Below, piece by piece: positions 1 through 20,346 of a DNA stretch of 34,274 nucleotides; within the stretch, counting starts at the first letter, position 1; each line of letters begins with the position of its first letter. The notes under the pieces were generated by a model. It ran no database searches and had not been told where the DNA came from. It saw only the letters and a list, made by a program, of their open reading frames with translations. This stretch comes from a virus (taxonomy: Duplodnaviria > Heunggongvirae > Uroviricota > Caudoviricetes). The position numbers and the translations under genes were made by a program. The stretch covers positions 1 to 34,274 of the IMG/VR virus record IMGVR_UViG_2913167280_000006. One strand, 5' to 3'.

Positions 1-1254
1 ATGCTGGAACAAATGGGCATTGCCGCGAAGCAAGCCTCGTATAAATTAGCGCAACTCTCCAGCCGCGAAAAAAATCGCGTGCTGGAAAAAATCGCCGATG
101 AACTGGAAGCACAAAGCGAAATCATCCTCAACGCTAACGCCCAGGATGTTGCTGACGCGCGTGCTAATGGCCTCAGCGAAGCGATGCTTGACCGTCTGGC
201 ACTGACGCCCGCACGGCTGAAAGGCATTGCCGATGATGTGCGCCAGGTGTGTAACCTCGCCGATCCGGTGGGGCAGGTAGTCGATGGCGGCGTGCTGGAC
301 AGCGGCCTGCGTCTGGAGCGTCGTCGCGTGCCGCTGGGGGTGATTGGCGTGATTTATGAAGCGCGCCCGAACGTGACGGTCGATGTTGCTTCGCTATGCC
401 TGAAAACGGGTAACGCGGTGATCCTGCGTGGCGGCAAAGAAACCTGTCGCACTAACGCTGCAACGGTGGCGGTGATTCAGGACGCCCTGAAATCCTGCGG
501 TTTACCGGCAGGTGCAGTACAGGCAATTGATAATCCTGACCGCGCGTTGGTCAGTGAAATGCTGCGTATGGATAAATACATCGACATGCTGATCCCGCGC
601 GGCGGCGCTGGTCTGCATAAGCTATGCCGCGAACAGTCGACAATCCCGGTGATCACAGGCGGTATAGGCGTATGCCATATTTACGTTGATGAAAGTGCAG
701 AGATCGCTGAAGCCCTGAAAGTGATCGTCAACGCGAAAACTCAGCGTCCGAGCACATGTAATACGGTAGAAACGTTGCTGGTGAATAAAAACATCGCCGA
801 TAGCTTCCTGCCCGCATTAAGCAAACAAATGGCGGAAAGCAGCGTGACATTACACGCAGATGCTGCCGCAATGGCACAGTTGCAGCCAGGCCCTGCGAAG
901 GTGGTTGCTGTTAAAGCCGAAGAGTATGACGATGAATTTCTGTCATTAGATTTGAACGTCAAAATCGTCAGCGATCTGGACGACGCCATTGCCCATATTC
1001 GTGAACACGGCACACAACACTCCGATGCGATCCTGACCCGCGATATGCGCAACGCCCAGCGTTTTGTTAACGAAGTGGATTCCTCCGCTGTTTACGTTAA
1101 CGCCTCTACGCGTTTTACCGACGGCGGCCAGTTTGGTCTGGGCGCGGAAGTGGCTGTAAGCACGCAAAAACTGCACGCACGCGGCCCAATGGGGCTGGAA
1201 GCACTGACCACCTACAAGTGGATCGGCATTGGTGATTACACCATTCGTGCGTAA
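1..1254 (+). CDS. proA: Gamma-glutamyl phosphate reductase (proline biosynthesis)
   Basis: Full 417-aa ORF beginning [13 protein letters not shown], recognised as enterobacterial ProA; the window begins exactly at the ATG. Confidence 0.93.
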
Positions 1255-1368
1255 ATAAAACCGGGTGATGCAAAAGTAGCCATTTGATTCACAAGGCCAT
1301 TGACGCATCGCCCGGTTAGTTTTAACCTTGTCCACCGTGATTCACGTTCGTGAACATGTCCTTTCAGG

Positions 1369-1444
1369 GCCGATATAGCTCAGTTGGTAGAGCAGCGCAT
1401 TCGTAATGCGAAGGTCGTAGGTTCGACTCCTATTATCGGCACCA
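1369..1444 (+). tRNA. thrW: tRNA-Thr (anticodon CGU)
   Basis: GCCGATATAGCTCAGTTGGTAGAGC...GGTTCGACTCCTATTATCGGCACCA seen directly: 7-bp acceptor stem, D-loop, anticodon loop with CGT, T-loop GGTTCGACTCC, encoded CCA. The integrase gene lies immediately downstream. Confidence 0.9.
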
Positions 1445-1458
1445 TTTAAATCAATAAG

Positions 1459-2622
1459 TTACACATCATTAGTACCTTCCTTATTTTTTGACTGGGACAA
1501 ATTTGGGACCGATGGGTTCAGGATCGAGTCTATTTGCCGTGCGTGTTCGGTAAGGTGATTAGGTGCAAGGTGAGCATATCGACGAACCATTTCGATAGAC
1601 TCCCAGCCTCCCATTTCCTGTAACACTGACAACGGGACTCCGGCTTGAACCAGCCAACTTGCCCAGGTGTGTCTCAAGTCGTGAAATCTGAAATCATCAA
1701 TACCAGCCCGTCTCAGCGCCGCTTTCCAGGCTGTGTTTGCGTCATACCGCATCTTCCTTACTGTTGGCGCTTTCGTTCCGTCTGGTTTGGTACAGCTTTC
1801 CTTGTACACAAATACCCAACGGTGATGATTCCCGATTTGTTTTTTCAATACGCGACATGCAGTATCATTCAGCGCAACGCCAATTGCGCGGTTTGATTTA
1901 CTCTCTTCCGGGTTTATCCATGCCACCCGGCGCTGCATATCTATTTGTTGCCATTCAAGGTTGATGATGTTCGAGCGTCTTAAGCCTGTTGCCAGTGCAA
2001 ATTCAACAACAGACTTTAATGGCTCCGGACATTCATCAATCAGCCTTTGTGCTTCATGGGGCTCCAGCCAGCGGATCCGTTTATTCTTTGGTTGAGGCAC
2101 TTTAATAATTGGTGCCTTATCCAGCATTTTCCATTCACGCTCTGCGGCTCTTAGTAGGGCCTTTATAAATGAAAGATGCGTAGCCTTCGTTGCAACGGAC
2201 GCTGGTTTTGGCGTGTATTCTGGAACAGGTTTCCCTTTTTTTCTGCACGCTTCTGCCCTGAGTTTCCAGTTTTCCTCATGACGCCGGTTCGTCATTTTCT
2301 GCATTGCTGAATAAATTTTTGATTCAGTAATGTCTCTTAGTTGCATTCCTGCGAAATGTTGAAGCCAGAATCCGATCCGGCTTTTGTCATCGTCCAGTGA
2401 TTTTTTATGTGCTTTCTCTTCAAGCCACCTGACACACGCTTCCTCGAACGTTATATCAGGTATTTCACCAAGTTTGCTGACCCGCCATGCTTCAGCCTTT
2501 AGCTTGTCATGGAGTTCTGTCGCCTGCCTTTTGTCCTTTGTTCCAAGAGACTGTTTAAATCTTTTACCGTTCGGCAATGTGAAACTGGCGTACCATATTT
2601 CACTTCTGCGGAAGAGTGACAT
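1459..2622 (-). CDS. int: Tyrosine-type site-specific integrase (P22 Int-like, thrW-specific)
   Basis: 387-aa ORF with the C-terminal catalytic region ...[40 protein letters not shown] (R..HxxR..Y); adjacent to tRNA-Thr, the known P22 attachment locus. Confidence 0.9.
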
Positions 2623-3816: not shown

Positions 3817-3901
3817 TGTTCCTGAGCTTCACGTTGCAGAGCCGATAATCTCCGTCTCTTTAAATTAAAAAGACGGAGACTATTAAAAACTCATTAAAAC
3901 A

Positions 3902-4603
3902 TCAGGAAACAACAGATTCCCCGTAAAACGCTACAGCCTGTGCAGACTGGGAGTCCATATCATCATGGAGATCTCTGGAGTATGGGAGGGAGTTGACTGT
4001 CGATATAAATATACTGTCATTTTCTAAAGTGAAAATTTCTGATTCGAGACTACCAATATCACCACGTACAGGATTAGTCCACCCACTAAACAGTAAAAAT
4101 CCCCATTCCTGAAAAAGCCCGGAATTCACTTCACGTTTTACATCATGAAACATTTCTCCCGTCAGTTCATCGAAAGGGACATTATTGATATCGCGTCGTG
4201 CCGGGACAGTCCCTTTTTTATCCTCAATCCAAAACAATGCATCGTAAAATCTGTCCGACGTTGCGGTACGAGGTTTAAAGAAGCGATAAGGTTTAATTAA
4301 ATAAGATGACACATTTTTCCCTGTGGCTTTATCCTTCGCAAAAATAACAAATGTTTTACCAATGCAACTTTCATCAATATCATTTGAAAATGACACCACG
4401 CCGTCCTGATTTACAGTCAGCGAATTGTCTCCCGCATTGGTGACAACACTCCAGTCCAACGTATTATTATTGACAACATCATTGTCAACCACCATCTGAA
4501 ATGTCGCGCCTGGAAATAATGTTTTCGGGAATGAACCATTAGCCATGTCTTTTTTTATATCGAACACATGGTGGCTCACTAGAACACCGGTAATTTTGGG
4601 CAT
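3902..4603 (-). CDS. Hypothetical protein, paralog A of an AT-rich two-member family in this prophage
   Basis: 233-aa ORF (MPKITGVLVSHHVFDIKKDM...LFPGATFQMVVDND...QEWG...AQAVAFYGES); AAGGAG ribosome-binding site upstream; AT-rich; shares motifs with the ORF at 16042..16719. Confidence 0.7.
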   Translation of the reverse strand: MPKITGVLVSHHVFDIKKDMANGSFPKTLFPGATFQMVVDNDVVNNNTLDWSVVTNAGDNSLTVNQDGVVSFSNDIDESCIGKTFVIFAKDKATGKNVSSYLIKPYRFFKPRTATSDRFYDALFWIEDKKGTVPARRDINNVPFDELTGEMFHDVKREVNSGLFQEWGFLLFSGWTNPVRGDIGSLESEIFTLENDSIFISTVNSLPYSRDLHDDMDSQSAQAVAFYGESVVS

Positions 4604-5608: not shown

Positions 5609-5902
5609 TCAGTCATTACTGATAGCGCCATAGCGTGAGCGGTAATTACGCAGGCGCGGGTCAATTTCAGGGAAGTGGGTATATGTGGCTTTGCGGAATG
5701 GTCGGATTGATGTCTGGTAAATTCGCTCGCGTTCTTCTTTCTCTGCAAGCCATATACAATGGCGAAATTCCTTTTCCTCTTTCGTTTCCTGCGGTAGCGA
5801 CATTATCAGGTCGTAGTTTTTTCTGAATTTATCCAGCACCTCCAATACGGAATTGCCGGAACAGCGGCGCGCGTCGTCCGCACCATACAGAGGCGCTGGC
5901 AT
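5609..5902 (-). CDS. Hypothetical protein
   Basis: 97-aa ORF with an AGGAG ribosome-binding site, immediately downstream of ssb. Confidence 0.5.
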
Positions 5903-5915
5903 GGTTTTCTCCTGA

Positions 5916-6422
5916 TTAAATTGCGTGAATAGCGTGACGAGGGAAGGGGAGAGTTACTGGTGCAAAGGGTATATCGTCGTCAAAATCCATCGGAGGTTCG
6001 TTGTGTTGTGCTGGGGATGATTGCTGCTGTGGCTTCTGTGATTGCCTGCTGGCTGCTTGTTGTTTGCTGTCGCCAATGCCGCCAAGCATTTGCATCACGC
6101 CATTAATTCCGACATGAACCTCGGTTGTGTAACGGTCTTGCCCTGACTGGTCTTTCCACTTTCTGGTTCTCAGCATTCCCTCGAAATAAATCTGATCACC
6201 TTTTTTCACATACTGCCCCACGACCTCAGCCAGTTTCCCGGATACAGCAACACGATGCCATTCAGTCAATTCCTTTTGCTCGCCAGTATTTTTATCTCGC
6301 CATTGTTCTGACGTGGCTATTGTCAGGTTAGCGAACGCTGTTCCTGATGGTGAGTATCGAACTTCCGGGTCTTGTCCTACCCGACCAAGGATAATCACCT
6401 TATTTATCCCGCGAGAACTCAT
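5916..6422 (-). CDS. ssb: Single-stranded DNA-binding protein, with a 15-aa extension after the usual C-terminal DDDIPF
   Basis: [23 protein letters not shown]...TEWHRV...[17 protein letters not shown]...[11 protein letters not shown] matches the SSB OB-fold and acidic tail, but the reading frame continues [15 protein letters not shown] before the stop. Confidence 0.8.
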
Positions 6423-6886
6423 TTGCTCCACCTCTTGCCAGTTTTTATGTTGCTTATAATTGATTGAGATACACCCATGTCTTTTGCTATCTTGTACTGA
6501 CTCTCTTTTTCAGAGAGTCTTTTCCTAATTTCTATAACCTGCCACTCTGTTAATTTTGCACCATGATGAGCATGACCTTTTTTGGCTCCACGATGCCTTC
6601 CTTTTGCTATCTTGTCGTCCATGTTTTCTTGCGCGCTACCTAAAAAGAGATGTTCAGGATTAACGCAGCATGGGTTATCGCATTTGTGGCAAACCATCTT
6701 CCCAGATGGGATGGGGGAGTGATAAAGCTCAAAAGCAACCCGATGAGAAAGCATTGTTACGCCAAAGGCTACAAATTTTGTGTATCCTCCTTTGTTTTTT
6801 GAATAGGTAGACTCCCAGCAACCTGTTGTTTCATTAACTTTGTAGCTGGACTCGAATCTTTTAATAATTCCGTCCAAGTGAGACAT
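6419..6886 (-). CDS. HNH homing-type endonuclease with a C-terminal HTH-like region
   Basis: HRVAFELYH...[18 protein letters not shown] motif; AT-rich; start abuts the annealing-protein frame and stop overlaps the ssb start. Confidence 0.75.
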
Positions 6887-6993
6887 TTATGCCGCCTGTT
6901 TTAGTTCATTAACTCTGATGTTCATTACCTGAACGCATTTAGCCTGCGCATCCTCATTGCCAGCCATTAATTGCCAGTCATGCTGATAACGTT

Positions 6994-7593
6994 CTATGAG
7001 TTTTTCTTGTCAGTTTCTGTCGATGCATAATCGCTGAAGTCTTTCAGGATTTGTTCGCAGTCAACCGATGGAGATTTCTGGTTGGTATTTTCTGGTGATG
7101 GTTGATTGCCAGATGCTGGCATTGCCCATCCCGGCAGCGATGGAGGGGACCAGTAAAATCCTGTTCCATCCTTCAGTTTTGCCCTGTGCCATCCCTGCTT
7201 TTTATCGAGAGATGTTTGTGCGAAACCTTCCTCAAGGTTATACAGATACCGACCGATTCCCCACTGAACGGCAGCACGCTTCATTGCACCGGAACGACCA
7301 CCTTTGACGGCTTCTACCTGCGTGTTTTCAGCAGCATCCCATTTGGTTACCCATTCGGAATCAATCTTGATTGATATGCCGCATTCAACGCCGCCGTTGT
7401 TGGGAATATCGCGGTATTCATTGCGCCATCCCGCTTTGCCACAAACATCGTCAAGGCGTTTCATGATTGCCCGGTTCGTGACATAAGCCAGCACCATAGC
7501 CCACACTTTGCCATCGCGTGTTTTACCGCTTTGCTGTATTCGCCATTCGATATCTTCAGGGCTGAATGGCTCATCGAATTTATTCAAATCCAT
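6994..7593 (-). CDS. Single-strand annealing recombinase (Rad52/Sak-like core, GIGRYLY motif), apparently frameshifted near the 3' end
   Basis: 199-aa ORF; after its stop, a different frame reads ...KLIERYQHDWQLMAGNEDAQAKCVQVMNIRVNELKQAA to a TAA abutting the HNH start, resembling an Erf-type C-terminal tail. Confidence 0.6.
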   Translation of the reverse strand: MDLNKFDEPFSPEDIEWRIQQSGKTRDGKVWAMVLAYVTNRAIMKRLDDVCGKAGWRNEYRDIPNNGGVECGISIKIDSEWVTKWDAAENTQVEAVKGGRSGAMKRAAVQWGIGRYLYNLEEGFAQTSLDKKQGWHRAKLKDGTGFYWSPPSLPGWAMPASGNQPSPENTNQKSPSVDCEQILKDFSDYASTETDKKNS

Positions 7594-7695
7594 AATTCAC
7601 CTCAGAATGGACATGGCCCAAGGAAATAACGCTGGTTTAATACTTCGACTCTGGACAAATTAAGGCATACCCGCATTCCTTCGCGGTCACCATTA

Positions 7696-7851
7696 TGGCG
7701 ATACCAGAGAGCTTTCTGCGTGTACATGCGCCTCTGTAACTTGCTCTCCTTCACTGTGGTTGCAAGTGACATGAATATCTCCTTCGTTACCGATTAATTC
7801 TTTCATCTGACGAATGAATTCTTCGTCTGACCAGTTATCTGTAAAACTCAT
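7696..7851 (-). CDS. Small acidic hypothetical protein (51 aa)
   Basis: ATG overlapping the kil stop (ATGA); MSFTDNWSDEEFIRQMKELIG...; an alternative overlapping frame also exists. Confidence 0.3.
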
Positions 7852-14318: not shown

Positions 14319-14391
14319 CCATCTACATCACTGAGCTAATAACAGGTCTGCTGGTAATCGCAGGCCTTTTTATTTGGGGGAGAGGGAAGTC

Positions 14392-14880
14392 ATGAAAAAG
14401 CTAACCTTTGAAATTCGATCTCCAGCACATCAGCAAAACGCTATTCACGCAGTACAGCAAATCCTTCCAGACCCAACCAAACCAATCGTAGTAACCATTC
14501 AGGAACGCAACCGCAGCTTAGACCGGAATCGAAAGCTTTGGGCTTGCCTTGGTGACGTCTCTCGTCAGGTTGAATGGCATGGTCGCTGGCTGGATGCAGA
14601 AAGCTGGAAGTGCGTTTTTACAGCAGCATTAAAGCAGCAGGACGTTGCTGAGGTAACAGGCGCAACAGTAACCAGCATAAATCAGGCTGCGGCTAAAATG
14701 GCGCGGGCAGGAATTTTAGTCATTGATGGTAAGGTCTGGCGAACGGTGTATTACCGGTTCGCTACCAGGGAAGAACGGGAAGGAAAGGTGAGCACGAATC
14801 TGATTTTCAAGGAGTGTCGCCAGAGTGCCGCGATGAAGCGGGTTTTATTTGTTTATGCGGCGGGGGGAGGAAATCAGTGA
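14392..14880 (+). CDS. ninB: NinB-like protein with a divergent C-terminal half
   Basis: MKKLTFEIRSPAHQQNAIHAVQQILPDPTKPIVVTIQERNRSLDRNRKLWACLGDVSRQVEWHGRWLDAESWKCVFTAALKQQDV matches lambda NinB as I recall it; the remaining 70-odd residues do not. Confidence 0.55.
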   Translation: MKKLTFEIRSPAHQQNAIHAVQQILPDPTKPIVVTIQERNRSLDRNRKLWACLGDVSRQVEWHGRWLDAESWKCVFTAALKQQDVAEVTGATVTSINQAAAKMARAGILVIDGKVWRTVYYRFATREEREGKVSTNLIFKECRQSAAMKRVLFVYAAGGGNQ

Positions 14881-16041: not shown

Positions 16042-16719
16042 TCAGTCGATGGATTCTCCGTAGGATGCAACTGCCTGAGCGACGCAAAAACGATCAATAC
16101 ACTCTATTTCTCCATAATCACGCAGGCAATAATAAGTATTATTGTCTTTATCAAAAGCGTAAATGCTACAAATACCCTCAAGCTCACAACTTGCGTCCCA
16201 TCCACTATTAGATAACGTGCCCCATTCCTGGTAAAGCCCTGCGTTAACTTCTCGATTGATAATATGCGGTCCACTATAGTTATCATAATCGTAACTATAG
16301 ATGTCACGTGCCTCAGGAAAATTCCCGTTCATGTTTTCAATCCACGGTAAAATATCTTTAACTGAGTTATAAAGTTCAATGCTGTATTTGAAAAAACGCT
16401 TCACAATAAAAACATAGATGCCGGCAGATTTGTTTGTTGATTTATCAGTGGCGAAAATGACAAAAATCTTCCCAACGCACTTTTCATCTACCCCCGGAAA
16501 AGTTACTGTGCCATCCTGGCTAACCGCCAGAACATTATTGTCTGCATTAGTGCTACAGGTCCATTTTACCTTGTCATTATTAATAGGGTCATTATCAATG
16601 ACCATCTTGAAGGTTGCTCCTGGGAACAAACTGTTAGGGAAACAGTAACCACTCTCCATATCATTTTTAATATCATAGATATGGCTATCAACTAACACGC
16701 CTGTAATTTTGCTCATCAT
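16042..16719 (-). CDS. Hypothetical protein, paralog B of the AT-rich family
   Basis: ORF track 16042..16764; the start at MMSKITGVLVDSHIYDIKNDM matches the paralog A N-terminus, with shared LFPGATF, QEWG and AQAVASYGES motifs. Confidence 0.7.
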   Translation of the reverse strand: MMSKITGVLVDSHIYDIKNDMESGYCFPNSLFPGATFKMVIDNDPINNDKVKWTCSTNADNNVLAVSQDGTVTFPGVDEKCVGKIFVIFATDKSTNKSAGIYVFIVKRFFKYSIELYNSVKDILPWIENMNGNFPEARDIYSYDYDNYSGPHIINREVNAGLYQEWGTLSNSGWDASCELEGICSIYAFDKDNNTYYCLRDYGEIECIDRFCVAQAVASYGESID

Positions 16720-17230
16720 TGAACTCTCTTTGTTTGTTAAATAAAAAGTTTTATTCCTGAACAACGGAACACGCTGATATTAATGCAACCAATGAATTGT
16801 TGTTGTTATTTGGAGGTTATATAGTGGTATGAATGTTATTATGCGATGTCTCTGAGTGATGGGGTAAGGATTATATGATTCGCTTTTGAGATTTACCTAT
16901 GTCAGGCGTTGCTGTTCATGTTCGTCCCCGTTGTCAGTCTTCTTAGTCTGAGCTAATGTGATCATCAATGGGTTATCAGTTTTCTCTGAAGTTATATAAT
17001 TAATTGAGCGCCATAGCACCATGGGGCATTGTTGAATTTCATCTTCAATTGATTTTCCATAATCAACTCGCCATAATCATGTCATCGGAGCCTGAACACC
17101 TCCGGTGACTTCTGCGCTAAACGGGGACGTTTATGCGCACACACAATCCAAACTCTCTTCTCCCTTCACAGATGCAGAAATGCACCTGCGATTTTTTGCA
17201 TCCAACGTTTGACCTCTGCGGAGGTGAAGC

Positions 17231-17686
17231 GTGAACCTCCCACAAGACGGCATCAAATTGCATCGCGGTAACTTCACCGCTATCGGTCAGCAGATCCAGC
17301 CTTATCTGGAGGATGGAAAATGCTTTCGCATGGTGCTTAAACCGTGGCGGGAGAGACGCAGTCTTTCCCAGAATGCACTCAGCCACATGTGGTACAGCGA
17401 AATCAGTGAATACCTCATCAGCAGGGGGAAATCGTTCGCTACCGCAGCATGGGTAAAAGATGCTCTCAAACACACATACCTCGGTTATGAAACCAAGGAC
17501 CTGGTTGATGTCGTAACCGGCGAAATCACTACGATCCAGTCGTTACGCCATACCTCCGATCTTGATACCGGAGAGATGTATGTCTTCCTGTGTAAGGTTG
17601 AAGCCTGGGCGATGAATATTGGCTGCCACCTGACTATTCCGCAGAGCTGCGAGTTCCAGCTGCTGCGCGACAAGCAGGAGGCGTAA
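17231..17686 (+). CDS. ybcN: NinB/YbcN-family protein
   Basis: 151-aa ORF with [17 protein letters not shown]; recognised as the DLP12 YbcN type; followed by ninE. Confidence 0.7.
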
Positions 17687-19542: not shown

Positions 19543-20346
19543 CTATTTCTTTTGGGGAAGTGGATACTTTAAGCTAACATTTTGAGTTTCTATATCTCGT
19601 GGCCCTCGAGTTTTATCATAAAAATACCAGATATTAAATTTTCTCTCAGTGTGCCATGTATCATATTGCAAGTGATCCCAGCCTAAATATGAAGCAACAT
19701 AGTTTGATACTCTTATTTTGGCTTCAGATGAAGCTTTTCCTTGATATGCGCACATAACCGCACCTAAGAAAAAATCGGCTAGCTGAATGTTTTCAGATGC
19801 TTTAGAGTCTTTTGTCACTACACTGCTGATTATCCCTTTACGACCAAATTTTCTATTCAATATGTTATTGGCAATAACATTTAGTTCTTCATCGGCCTTT
19901 TTATAACGAGATGCGATAGGATCAACTTCAATCCTGAAGTAACTGTCTCTTTCAGGGTGTGCAGAAATTACAGAGCTAATTTTTGTGGTAATGAGATTTG
20001 TGAAGTGCTTTCTCCTTGCCAGGTCATAATCCCCATTATGAAATGCCTTGTTTACTATTGATTTTTCAACCACGATACAATGAAAAGCTAGCCAAGGAAC
20101 TCTAAAGAATAAGTCGATCAGCTCAAGATAAAATTCAGAGTATCTTTTTGAATGGGCTTTTTGCCATTTTATTTCTTCAAAAAAACCATGTTTGCTGCGT
20201 AGTTCTCTGATTAGTTGACAGAAATCCCCACGGCGTTGGTACTTCATCCACAGACTGCCAAAGCCGTAGAAACGTTGCCCATCAATGCCAGATTCATCGC
20301 AAGCAATATGCCAAATTAACTTACCAATGTTATCTTTTTCTGTCAT
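19543..20346 (-). CDS. DUF3800-like protein, encoded antisense between Q and the holin
   Basis: 267-aa AT-rich ORF with N-terminal CDESGIDG and C-terminal IQLADFFLGAV motifs that I associate with DUF3800. Confidence 0.6.
   Translation of the reverse strand: MTEKDNIGKLIWHIACDESGIDGQRFYGFGSLWMKYQRRGDFCQLIRELRSKHGFFEEIKWQKAHSKRYSEFYLELIDLFFRVPWLAFHCIVVEKSIVNKAFHNGDYDLARRKHFTNLITTKISSVISAHPERDSYFRIEVDPIASRYKKADEELNVIANNILNRKFGRKGIISSVVTKDSKASENIQLADFFLGAVMCAYQGKASSEAKIRVSNYVASYLGWDHLQYDTWHTERKFNIWYFYDKTRGPRDIETQNVSLKYPLPQKK

Follow-up and report, generated by a model that had tools for sequence, protein, structure and literature searches.

The annealing-protein (SSAP) gene described here lies in a prophage with a P22/Sf6-like early-left operon and lambda-like head genes, carried on a window of 34,274 nucleotides (the whole stretch of DNA that was analysed, IMG/VR record IMGVR_UViG_2913167280_000006). 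On the minus strand, an open reading frame of 199 aa that matches Pfam Rad52_Rad22 (7593..6994) runs from an ATG at 7593 to a TAG stop at 6996..6994, and its translation ends in ...TETDKKNS (SDYASTETDKKNS). The coding strand at the junction with the next frame reads GAC AAG AAA AAC TCA TAG. The sole homopolymer at this junction, located by a homopolymer scan, is a run of five A on the coding strand (A5, 7005..7001, minus strand; T5 at 7001..7005 on the plus strand). Three-frame translation shows a displaced frame, −1 relative to the ORF (7003..6887, minus strand), which opens with AAA CTC ATA GAA and encodes KLIERYQ...ELKQAA (K followed by LIERYQHDWQLMAGNEDAQAKCVQVMNIRVNELKQAA) up to a TAA at 6889..6887.

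The ATG of an HNH endonuclease gene (6886..6419, minus strand, 155 aa; Pfam HNH_3, E = 1.1e-13) touches this TAA with zero spacer (GCATAAATG). The gene encodes a free-standing endonuclease with a C-terminal helix-turn-helix and is inserted exactly between the SSAP stop and the start of the phage ssb gene, whose ATG its TGA overlaps. It was detected in 13 of 120 IMG/VR loci; ssb directly follows the annealing-protein gene in the E. coli relative L002 and in most E. coli and phage relatives. The single-stranded DNA-binding protein encoded by ssb (6422..5916, minus strand, 168 aa; Pfam SSB, E = 1.8e-36) is the next component of the recombination module, and the anti-RecBCD protein gene abc2 (5902..5609, minus strand, 97 aa; PHROG 656, E = 9.3e-54, full length) is its last gene.

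A preliminary description of this DNA had placed the stop of the recombinase ORF at 6994 and had read another frame from there to a TAA abutting the HNH start, and these coordinates are all correct. Its proposal that a one-base change in the run at 7001..7005 would fuse the two frames is also borne out, as one A inserted into the A5 run yields an uninterrupted ORF of 235 aa. The 199-aa product therefore consists of wild-type residues 1-197 (of 235) plus Asn-Ser, followed by the TAG. A 37-codon open stretch is by itself unremarkable ((61/64)^37 = 0.17); the homology of the tail frame, in contrast, lies far beyond chance.

In relatives the run is A6 and codes for Lys197-Lys198 as AAA AAA. Alignment with relatives, which had been suggested as a check, shows homologs that run through to 235 aa with A6 and do not end at this stop. 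Two E. coli relatives (L001 and L002) have A6 at exactly the position of the run, the single gap of the alignment falling inside it, and both carry an annotated 708-nt CDS named 'Rad52/Rad22 family DNA repair protein'. A megablast search of positions 6800..7700 against 5,426 complete E. coli genomes returned 361 records with at least 80% query coverage and, among the matches listed, every full-length match exceeds the query by one base. With an 86-base query centred on the run, 50 of 50 matched E. coli complete genomes were one base longer, corresponding to A6, and A5 was found in none of these 50 genomes. Using tblastn against GenBank phages, we found 97 records with the whole 235 aa in a single frame, including N7, mEp235, mEpX2, ECP1, Sf6 (gp28), IME10, HK75, ES18 (gp49), epsilon34 and ST64T (Orf-235). 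Protein searches at full coverage returned over 100 clusters of 230-241 aa, with identity down to 57%.

We also performed pattern scans, requiring an exact match with degenerate flanks (GAAACKGACAAG, then A5 or A6, then CTNAT). A5 was absent and A6 present in IMG/VR (0 and at least 120), in 185,579 species-representative genomes (0 and 6) and in metagenome contigs (0 and 62), so that the three scans together place A6 on at least 188 contigs and A5 on none. No A7 allele was detected by the scan of IMG/VR. The core and the tail share one frame in 120 of the 120 IMG/VR loci. By these sequence comparisons, the intact A6 form is overwhelmingly the norm among relatives.

Two Salmonella phage contigs, ST-29 (CP051288) and SW-70 (CP051272), have likewise gone from A6 to A5, and their products end in ...TDKKN followed by a stop. 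The background there is 91% identical to the window gene, with different flanking codons. The gene is intact in a third phage contig, ST-35, from the same study. The lysine run also varies in frame, as the P0002 cluster (298 members) has a KK variant. The ST-29/SW-70 recurrence and the KK variant show only that the tract is mildly slippage-prone, like any A6 run.

The core of the restored protein matches Pfam PF04098 (Rad52_Rad22, E = 5.1e-26, 91.9 bits against a cut-off of 20.3) over residues 4-136, covering profile positions 7-153 of 153. It is 58.7% identical to ORF252 (Sak) of the lactococcal phage ul36 over residues 6-159. A full-length AlphaFold model was built on the 96%-identical sequence P0001 (pLDDT 83), and its top Foldseek matches in the PDB were Mgm101 (probability 1.00, E = 1.9e-3) and human RAD52, with modest E-values. 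The core is thus predicted, from profile matches and the model, to adopt a Rad52-like beta-beta-beta-alpha fold, in agreement with the Rad52/Sak-like N-terminal core first proposed. The restored protein gave no match to Pfam ERF (PF04404) at E up to 0.1, so the suggested search against Erf and Rad52 HMMs returned Rad52_Rad22 only. As a control, P22 Erf itself matches Pfam ERF over residues 5-146 (E = 4.6e-46), and its tail falls outside the model.

The tail has a different affiliation. P22 Erf matches only residues 166-235 of the restored protein, with 48 of 71 residues identical by BLASTP (68%, E = 8e-32), which upholds the resemblance to the P22 Erf C-terminus that had been noted. The final 171 nt of the gene align with the final 171 nt of P22 erf without gaps at 78.9% identity, and nothing aligns upstream of them. 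The restored last 60 aa are 100% identical to those of phages ECP1 and N7 and 75% identical to those of P22 Erf. This P22-Erf-type tail follows a low-complexity linker, and it is the tail that is split over two frames in the window. It is also found on ERF-family cores in Klebsiella phage RCIP0098 and Morganella phage IME1369_01. The C-terminal domain (CTD) is a portable module of 55-70 aa that occurs on both Rad52_Rad22-type and ERF-type cores; the P22-Erf-type CTD has neither a Pfam model nor a solved structure. Since the core is Rad52/Sak-like without an ERF match and the tail is of P22-Erf type, the intact protein is, by sequence comparison, a mosaic in which a Rad52/Sak-type core is joined to a P22-Erf-type C-terminal module, the chimera that the preliminary description had suspected. 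The mosaic is already known, as it is the standard, long-sequenced Sf6/ES18/ST64T type.

Over all 235 aa, the restored window protein is 97-98% identical to those of Sf6, N7, mEp235, ECP1 and HK75, and it is 90-95% identical to those of the Salmonella phages. In the relatives of the Sf6 gp28 / ES18 gp49 / ST64T Orf-235 type the gene sits at the same point of the early-left operon (kil, small ORF, SSAP, ssb, abc2), whereas the window has A5, ends the protein at 199 aa and carries the HNH gene between SSAP and ssb. These relatives are annotated as 'Erf-like ssDNA annealing protein' or 'Rad52/Rad22 family DNA repair protein'. Because the ERF profile gives no match, the 'Erf-like' database names do not indicate ERF family membership and are justified by the tail only; for the annealing core the label is a misnomer, only the 55-70-aa CTD being common to P22 Erf.

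With P22 Erf, the window protein has in common the C-terminal domain, including TETDKKKLIERYQHDWQL and CVQVMNIR.NELKQ, and the operon position with abc2 downstream. In contrast, the first ~165 residues have no detectable similarity to P22 Erf, whose core belongs to Pfam ERF rather than Rad52_Rad22, the P22 neighbours are arf and abc1 in place of ssb, and the P22 KKK is encoded as AAG AAA AAG, without an A6 run. The ul36 Sak (ORF252) shares the annealing core, the Pfam family and the Rad52/Mgm101-like predicted fold, but the similarity ends at about residue 159 and the Erf-type CTD is absent from the shared part.

AlphaFold places a disordered linker at residues 164-175, followed by helices at 179-192, 196-209 and 214-234 (pLDDT 83-92). 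A model of the CTD only has three helices at 6-19, 23-36 and 41-61 (pLDDT 92.9, pTM 0.77), and the C-terminal domain is predicted on this basis to fold independently as a helical unit. In an alignment of 75 sequences, L183 and F186 are invariant, and conservation reaches at least 90% at A190, L199, Y203, W207, C220, R227, E230 and L231. Codon 198, where the frames part, lies at the start of helix 2. Up to this point the truncated product is unchanged, with the Rad52-type core over about residues 1-150, then the disordered linker and helix 1 (codons 179-192, 7059..7018), and it is without helices 2 and 3, which hold most of the conserved CTD positions (L199, Y203, W207, C220, R227, E230 and L231). 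Fold searches with the CTD returned generic three-helix bundles only. The CTD of lambda Red-beta (PDB 6M9K) serves as a working analogy, as in both proteins a flexible linker connects a small helical domain to an annealing core of the Rad52 superfamily; no sequence link between the two C-terminal domains was seen.

The window begins in proA, followed by tRNA-Thr(CGT) (1369..1444) and an integrase, and the prophage is therefore located at the thrW site. The proA sequence has at most 96.6% identity to any of the 5,426 E. coli complete genomes, which suggests that the host is probably a non-coli Escherichia lineage. The prophage looks complete as far as the window reaches. End-to-end profile matches were obtained for the integrase, repressor, O-like initiator, DnaB helicase, NinB, RusA, Q, holin, endolysin, Rz, both terminase subunits, portal, protease/scaffold and major capsid protein. 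The suggestion of a decaying prophage is not supported, as the other tested genes match their profiles end to end and the out-of-frame tail is undamaged.

Two candidates for a second lesion were rejected. One is a NinB'-'Ren chimeric ORF (14374-14880), which is a mosaic junction that causes no loss of function because an intact NinB of 151 aa is present at 17231-17686. The other is the SSB C-terminus, in which 15 residues extend beyond DDDIPF; most related loci have this form.

In its sequence the gene looks like a pseudogene by homopolymer frameshift: the intact form prevails among relatives, and the window copy differs from it by a single-base indel within a mononucleotide run. The choice originally put forward, a sequencing error or an inactivating mutation, is the right pair of alternatives. 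We regard it as fairly probable that the mutation is real and that an annealing-protein gene of the Sf6-gp28 / ES18-gp49 / ST64T-Orf235 type has recently been damaged in the window. One A would have been lost from the A6 run, most likely by replication slippage, and the loss would shift codon 198 onward out of frame, giving 199 aa instead of 235. A real recent mutation is favoured over error because A5 is seen in the assemblies of two read sets and an equivalent loss is found in Salmonella. The lesion would be young and isolated, since the out-of-frame tail has taken no damage and the other parts of the prophage seem functional. The tail differs from L001 and L002 at 4-5 synonymous positions and at 2 conservative non-synonymous ones, and P22 Erf has both of the non-synonymous states.

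The core of the truncated protein would probably still oligomerise, bind single-stranded DNA and anneal. Poteete, Sauer and Hendrix reportedly found in 1983 that N-terminal fragments of P22 Erf still form rings and bind DNA. The truncated helical domain, in turn, is expected to be unable to fold because a three-helix bundle is impossible from one helix. A trace of the exact wild-type protein could come from −1 ribosome slippage on the A-run.

Red-beta uses its C-terminal domain to bind lambda Exo and the tail of the host SSB, the latter contact being needed for recombination in vivo; in annealing proteins of other phages the C-terminal domain is believed, though not demonstrated, to have the same role (review, PMC11611040). 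In HK620, phage SSB tails stimulate the neighbouring recombinase (PMC5928155). By analogy with Red-beta, the CTD of the intact protein would dock it onto SSB-coated DNA and/or the end-processing machinery, for which the phage SSB is a candidate partner. Among the 120 IMG/VR SSAP loci, ssb is present in 105 and abc2 in 109. Given the contacts of the Red-beta CTD, the stimulation by SSB tails in HK620 and these usual neighbours, function in vivo is probably lost or much reduced; from the docking role assumed by analogy, the A5 allele should be strongly defective in phage recombination in vivo. Mutants of P22 erf depend on the RecA of the host.

The locus is best annotated as a frameshifted (pseudo) annealing protein of Sf6-gp28 type and not as a novel short recombinase with an orphan ORF. 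The feature is commonplace, a one-base frameshift in a homopolymer, or possibly a miscall, within a mosaic gene that is well known, and nothing here would surprise a specialist in phage recombination. The natural truncations (the window allele, ST-29 and SW-70) are material ready for asking what the CTD binds.

A sequencing artefact is the main alternative and one that we consider possible but rather unlikely. The strain would then truly have A6 and an intact 235-aa gene, one A having been dropped when bases were called or the consensus was built. Among indel errors, undercalled homopolymers are the most frequent, and the tail is without any decay, as an artefact predicts. The A5 allele was not otherwise encountered, the scans giving 0 A5 against at least 188 A6; exact full-length SSAP sequences are found on hundreds of contigs and the exact 199-aa product on two Logan contigs only. 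However, A5 comes from two separately accessioned runs processed by an independent assembly pipeline. The Logan assembly of run SRR8835200 is 100% identical to the window across 5,820 bases, A5 included, although it may be the read set behind the window itself. The Logan contig of run SRR6148325 has A5 too; it also has two extra G-run deletions in the HNH gene, and these further homopolymer deletions suggest that the data set is indel-prone and gives weaker support for A5. About 30 other window genes were tested against profiles and all are full length, which indicates that the assembly is not generally indel-prone; no other broken gene was found among those tested in the 34-kb window. A run of 5-6 bases is also seldom miscalled by Illumina. 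The contigs ST-29 and SW-70, with their equivalent A5, come from Illumina-first Unicycler assemblies polished with Pilon (PMC7303406), and ST-35, from the same study and pipeline, is intact.

It is very improbable, in our judgement, that the A-run is a functional slippery site used for −1 ribosomal frameshifting, transcriptional slippage or phase variation, by which the phage would make both a CTD-less and a full-length form, as with the gamma and tau products of dnaX. A −1 slip of tRNA-Lys on AAG AAA AAC would restore exactly the wild-type DKKKLIE... protein, the same A6-to-A5 change has arisen at least twice in different backgrounds, and the in-frame KK variant of P0002 adds to the variation of the lysine run. 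As in dnaX-type −1 sites, an A-rich run of lysine codons is present at which a −1 slip would alter the C-terminus of a protein of DNA metabolism. The window, in contrast to those sites, has no canonical heptamer, upstream SD-like element, downstream structure or conservation of the run. The heptamer G AAA AAC is imperfect relative to the canonical X XXY YYZ, and re-pairing in the P site needs a first-position G:U pair. No Shine-Dalgarno-like element (GGAGG-like) was found in the 40 nt upstream of the run, and the predicted RNA fold of 7020..6880 is no better than that of shuffled sequences (z = −0.09, 87 of 200 shuffles folding equally well). Neither the run nor the two-frame layout is conserved, as P22 has AAG AAA AAG, more distant homologs lack KKK and homologs are single-frame. 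Five or six A are too short for efficient transcriptional slippage. The scans found neither A5 nor A7 in IMG/VR and no A5 in the metagenome contigs or the species-representative genomes, with A6 being common, so the tract is not hypervariable. Programmed frameshifting or slippage was accordingly rejected, with heptamer, upstream SD region, RNA fold, run conservation and allele frequencies all unsupportive, and some −1 leakiness at the run is plausible.

A more elaborate form of this idea, in which the A-run at codons 197-198 is a recurrent switch for the partner-docking CTD and the protein a tunable two-isoform recombinase, is highly improbable. If true, the phage would make mostly CTD-less core with a small wild-type fraction through −1 slippage of tRNA-Lys, loosely like dnaX tau/gamma. 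The losses in an Escherichia prophage and in Salmonella P22-like phages would then be independent, and possibly favoured when full phage recombination costs the lysogen.

The remaining reading, two genuine genes for a naturally short annealing protein and a separately translated small tail protein, has nothing specific in its favour beyond a tail frame that is open as far as the HNH start, and it is effectively refuted and next to impossible, as that frame has no start codon before an internal Met (which would give 26 aa only), it contains no listed ORF of at least 30 aa, and core and tail form a single in-frame polypeptide in every relative.

The loss of one A from the coding-strand run of six (A6 to A5) that shortens the single-strand annealing protein (SSAP) gene recurs in two Salmonella phage contigs, ST-29 (CP051288, 1501-2207) and SW-70 (CP051272, 1-707). 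Both carry the identical loss at the same run, in an SSAP gene that is 91% identical to that of the window, and their products end in ...TDKKN*. The two contigs come from different serovars and different provinces, and were assembled from Illumina and MinION data with Pilon polishing. The Logan assembly of run SRR6148325 also carries A5, its only differences from the window being two deletions of a single G, both located in short G runs of the neighbouring HNH gene (3890-3900 of the assembly, corresponding to 6695-6701 of the window). As these deletions hint at homopolymer-prone data, this assembly is weaker as independent support for the A5 allele.

The lysine run and the tail that follows it also vary among SSAP relatives found by protein search. 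One relative (P0002, 234 aa, 298 members) has KK at the run versus KKK in the intact form, an in-frame loss of 3 nt. Another (P0023, 225 aa) shares the Rad52-type core, but its C-terminal helical domain (...QVLKAFTDAAMQKNTVEELKQAFAKAWKML...) is clearly distinct; thus, the SSAP tail is exchanged as a module.

The HNH gene (6419-6886, minus strand) encodes a free-standing endonuclease with a C-terminal helix-turn-helix. It fits precisely into the junction from the SSAP stop to the ssb start, with an ATG that directly follows the SSAP TAA and a TGA that overlaps the ATG of ssb. It is found in 13 of the 120 IMG/VR loci that carry an intact SSAP; most relatives lack it and have ssb directly after SSAP. 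The gene looks like a mobile homing-type insertion. The phage SSB that follows (5916-6422, minus strand) extends past the canonical acidic tip, as ...MDFDDDIPF is followed by 15 extra residues that include a second LPF motif, so that the IPF tip is buried rather than terminal. Most related loci share this extended tail (78 identical and 5 near-identical tails out of ~112), and the SSB of the remaining loci ends in DIPF or EIPF.

Mosaicism probably accounts for a chimeric ORF on the plus strand (14374-14880), in which the first ~90 residues of NinB are joined to residues ~20-90 of Ren, the two alignments overlapping by 11 nt. In relatives, ren lies upstream of ninB as a separate gene. The chimera is probably a recombination scar. 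A complete NinB (151 aa, 17231-17686, plus strand) is encoded 2.4 kb downstream, with an HNH-like ORF, RusA and Q after it.

Two paralogous minus-strand ORFs of 233 and 240 aa (3902-4603 and 16042-16764) are 44% identical (E = 1e-60). Their sole Pfam signal is Invasin_D4 (Ig-like), and neither matched a PHROG family. One is part of the early-left operon; the other lies antisense inside the nin region, a placement like that of a moron. Also antisense, a DUF3800 protein (267 aa, 19543-20346, minus strand, full-length match to PHROG 3732) is encoded between Q and the holin, where morons are typically found.

The tRNA-Thr(CGT) gene, adjoining proA, is the integration site of the prophage. None of 5,426 complete E. 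coli genomes exceeds 96.6% identity to the host backbone that contains both genes (1-1460, plus strand), which suggests that the host is a non-coli or cryptic-clade Escherichia.
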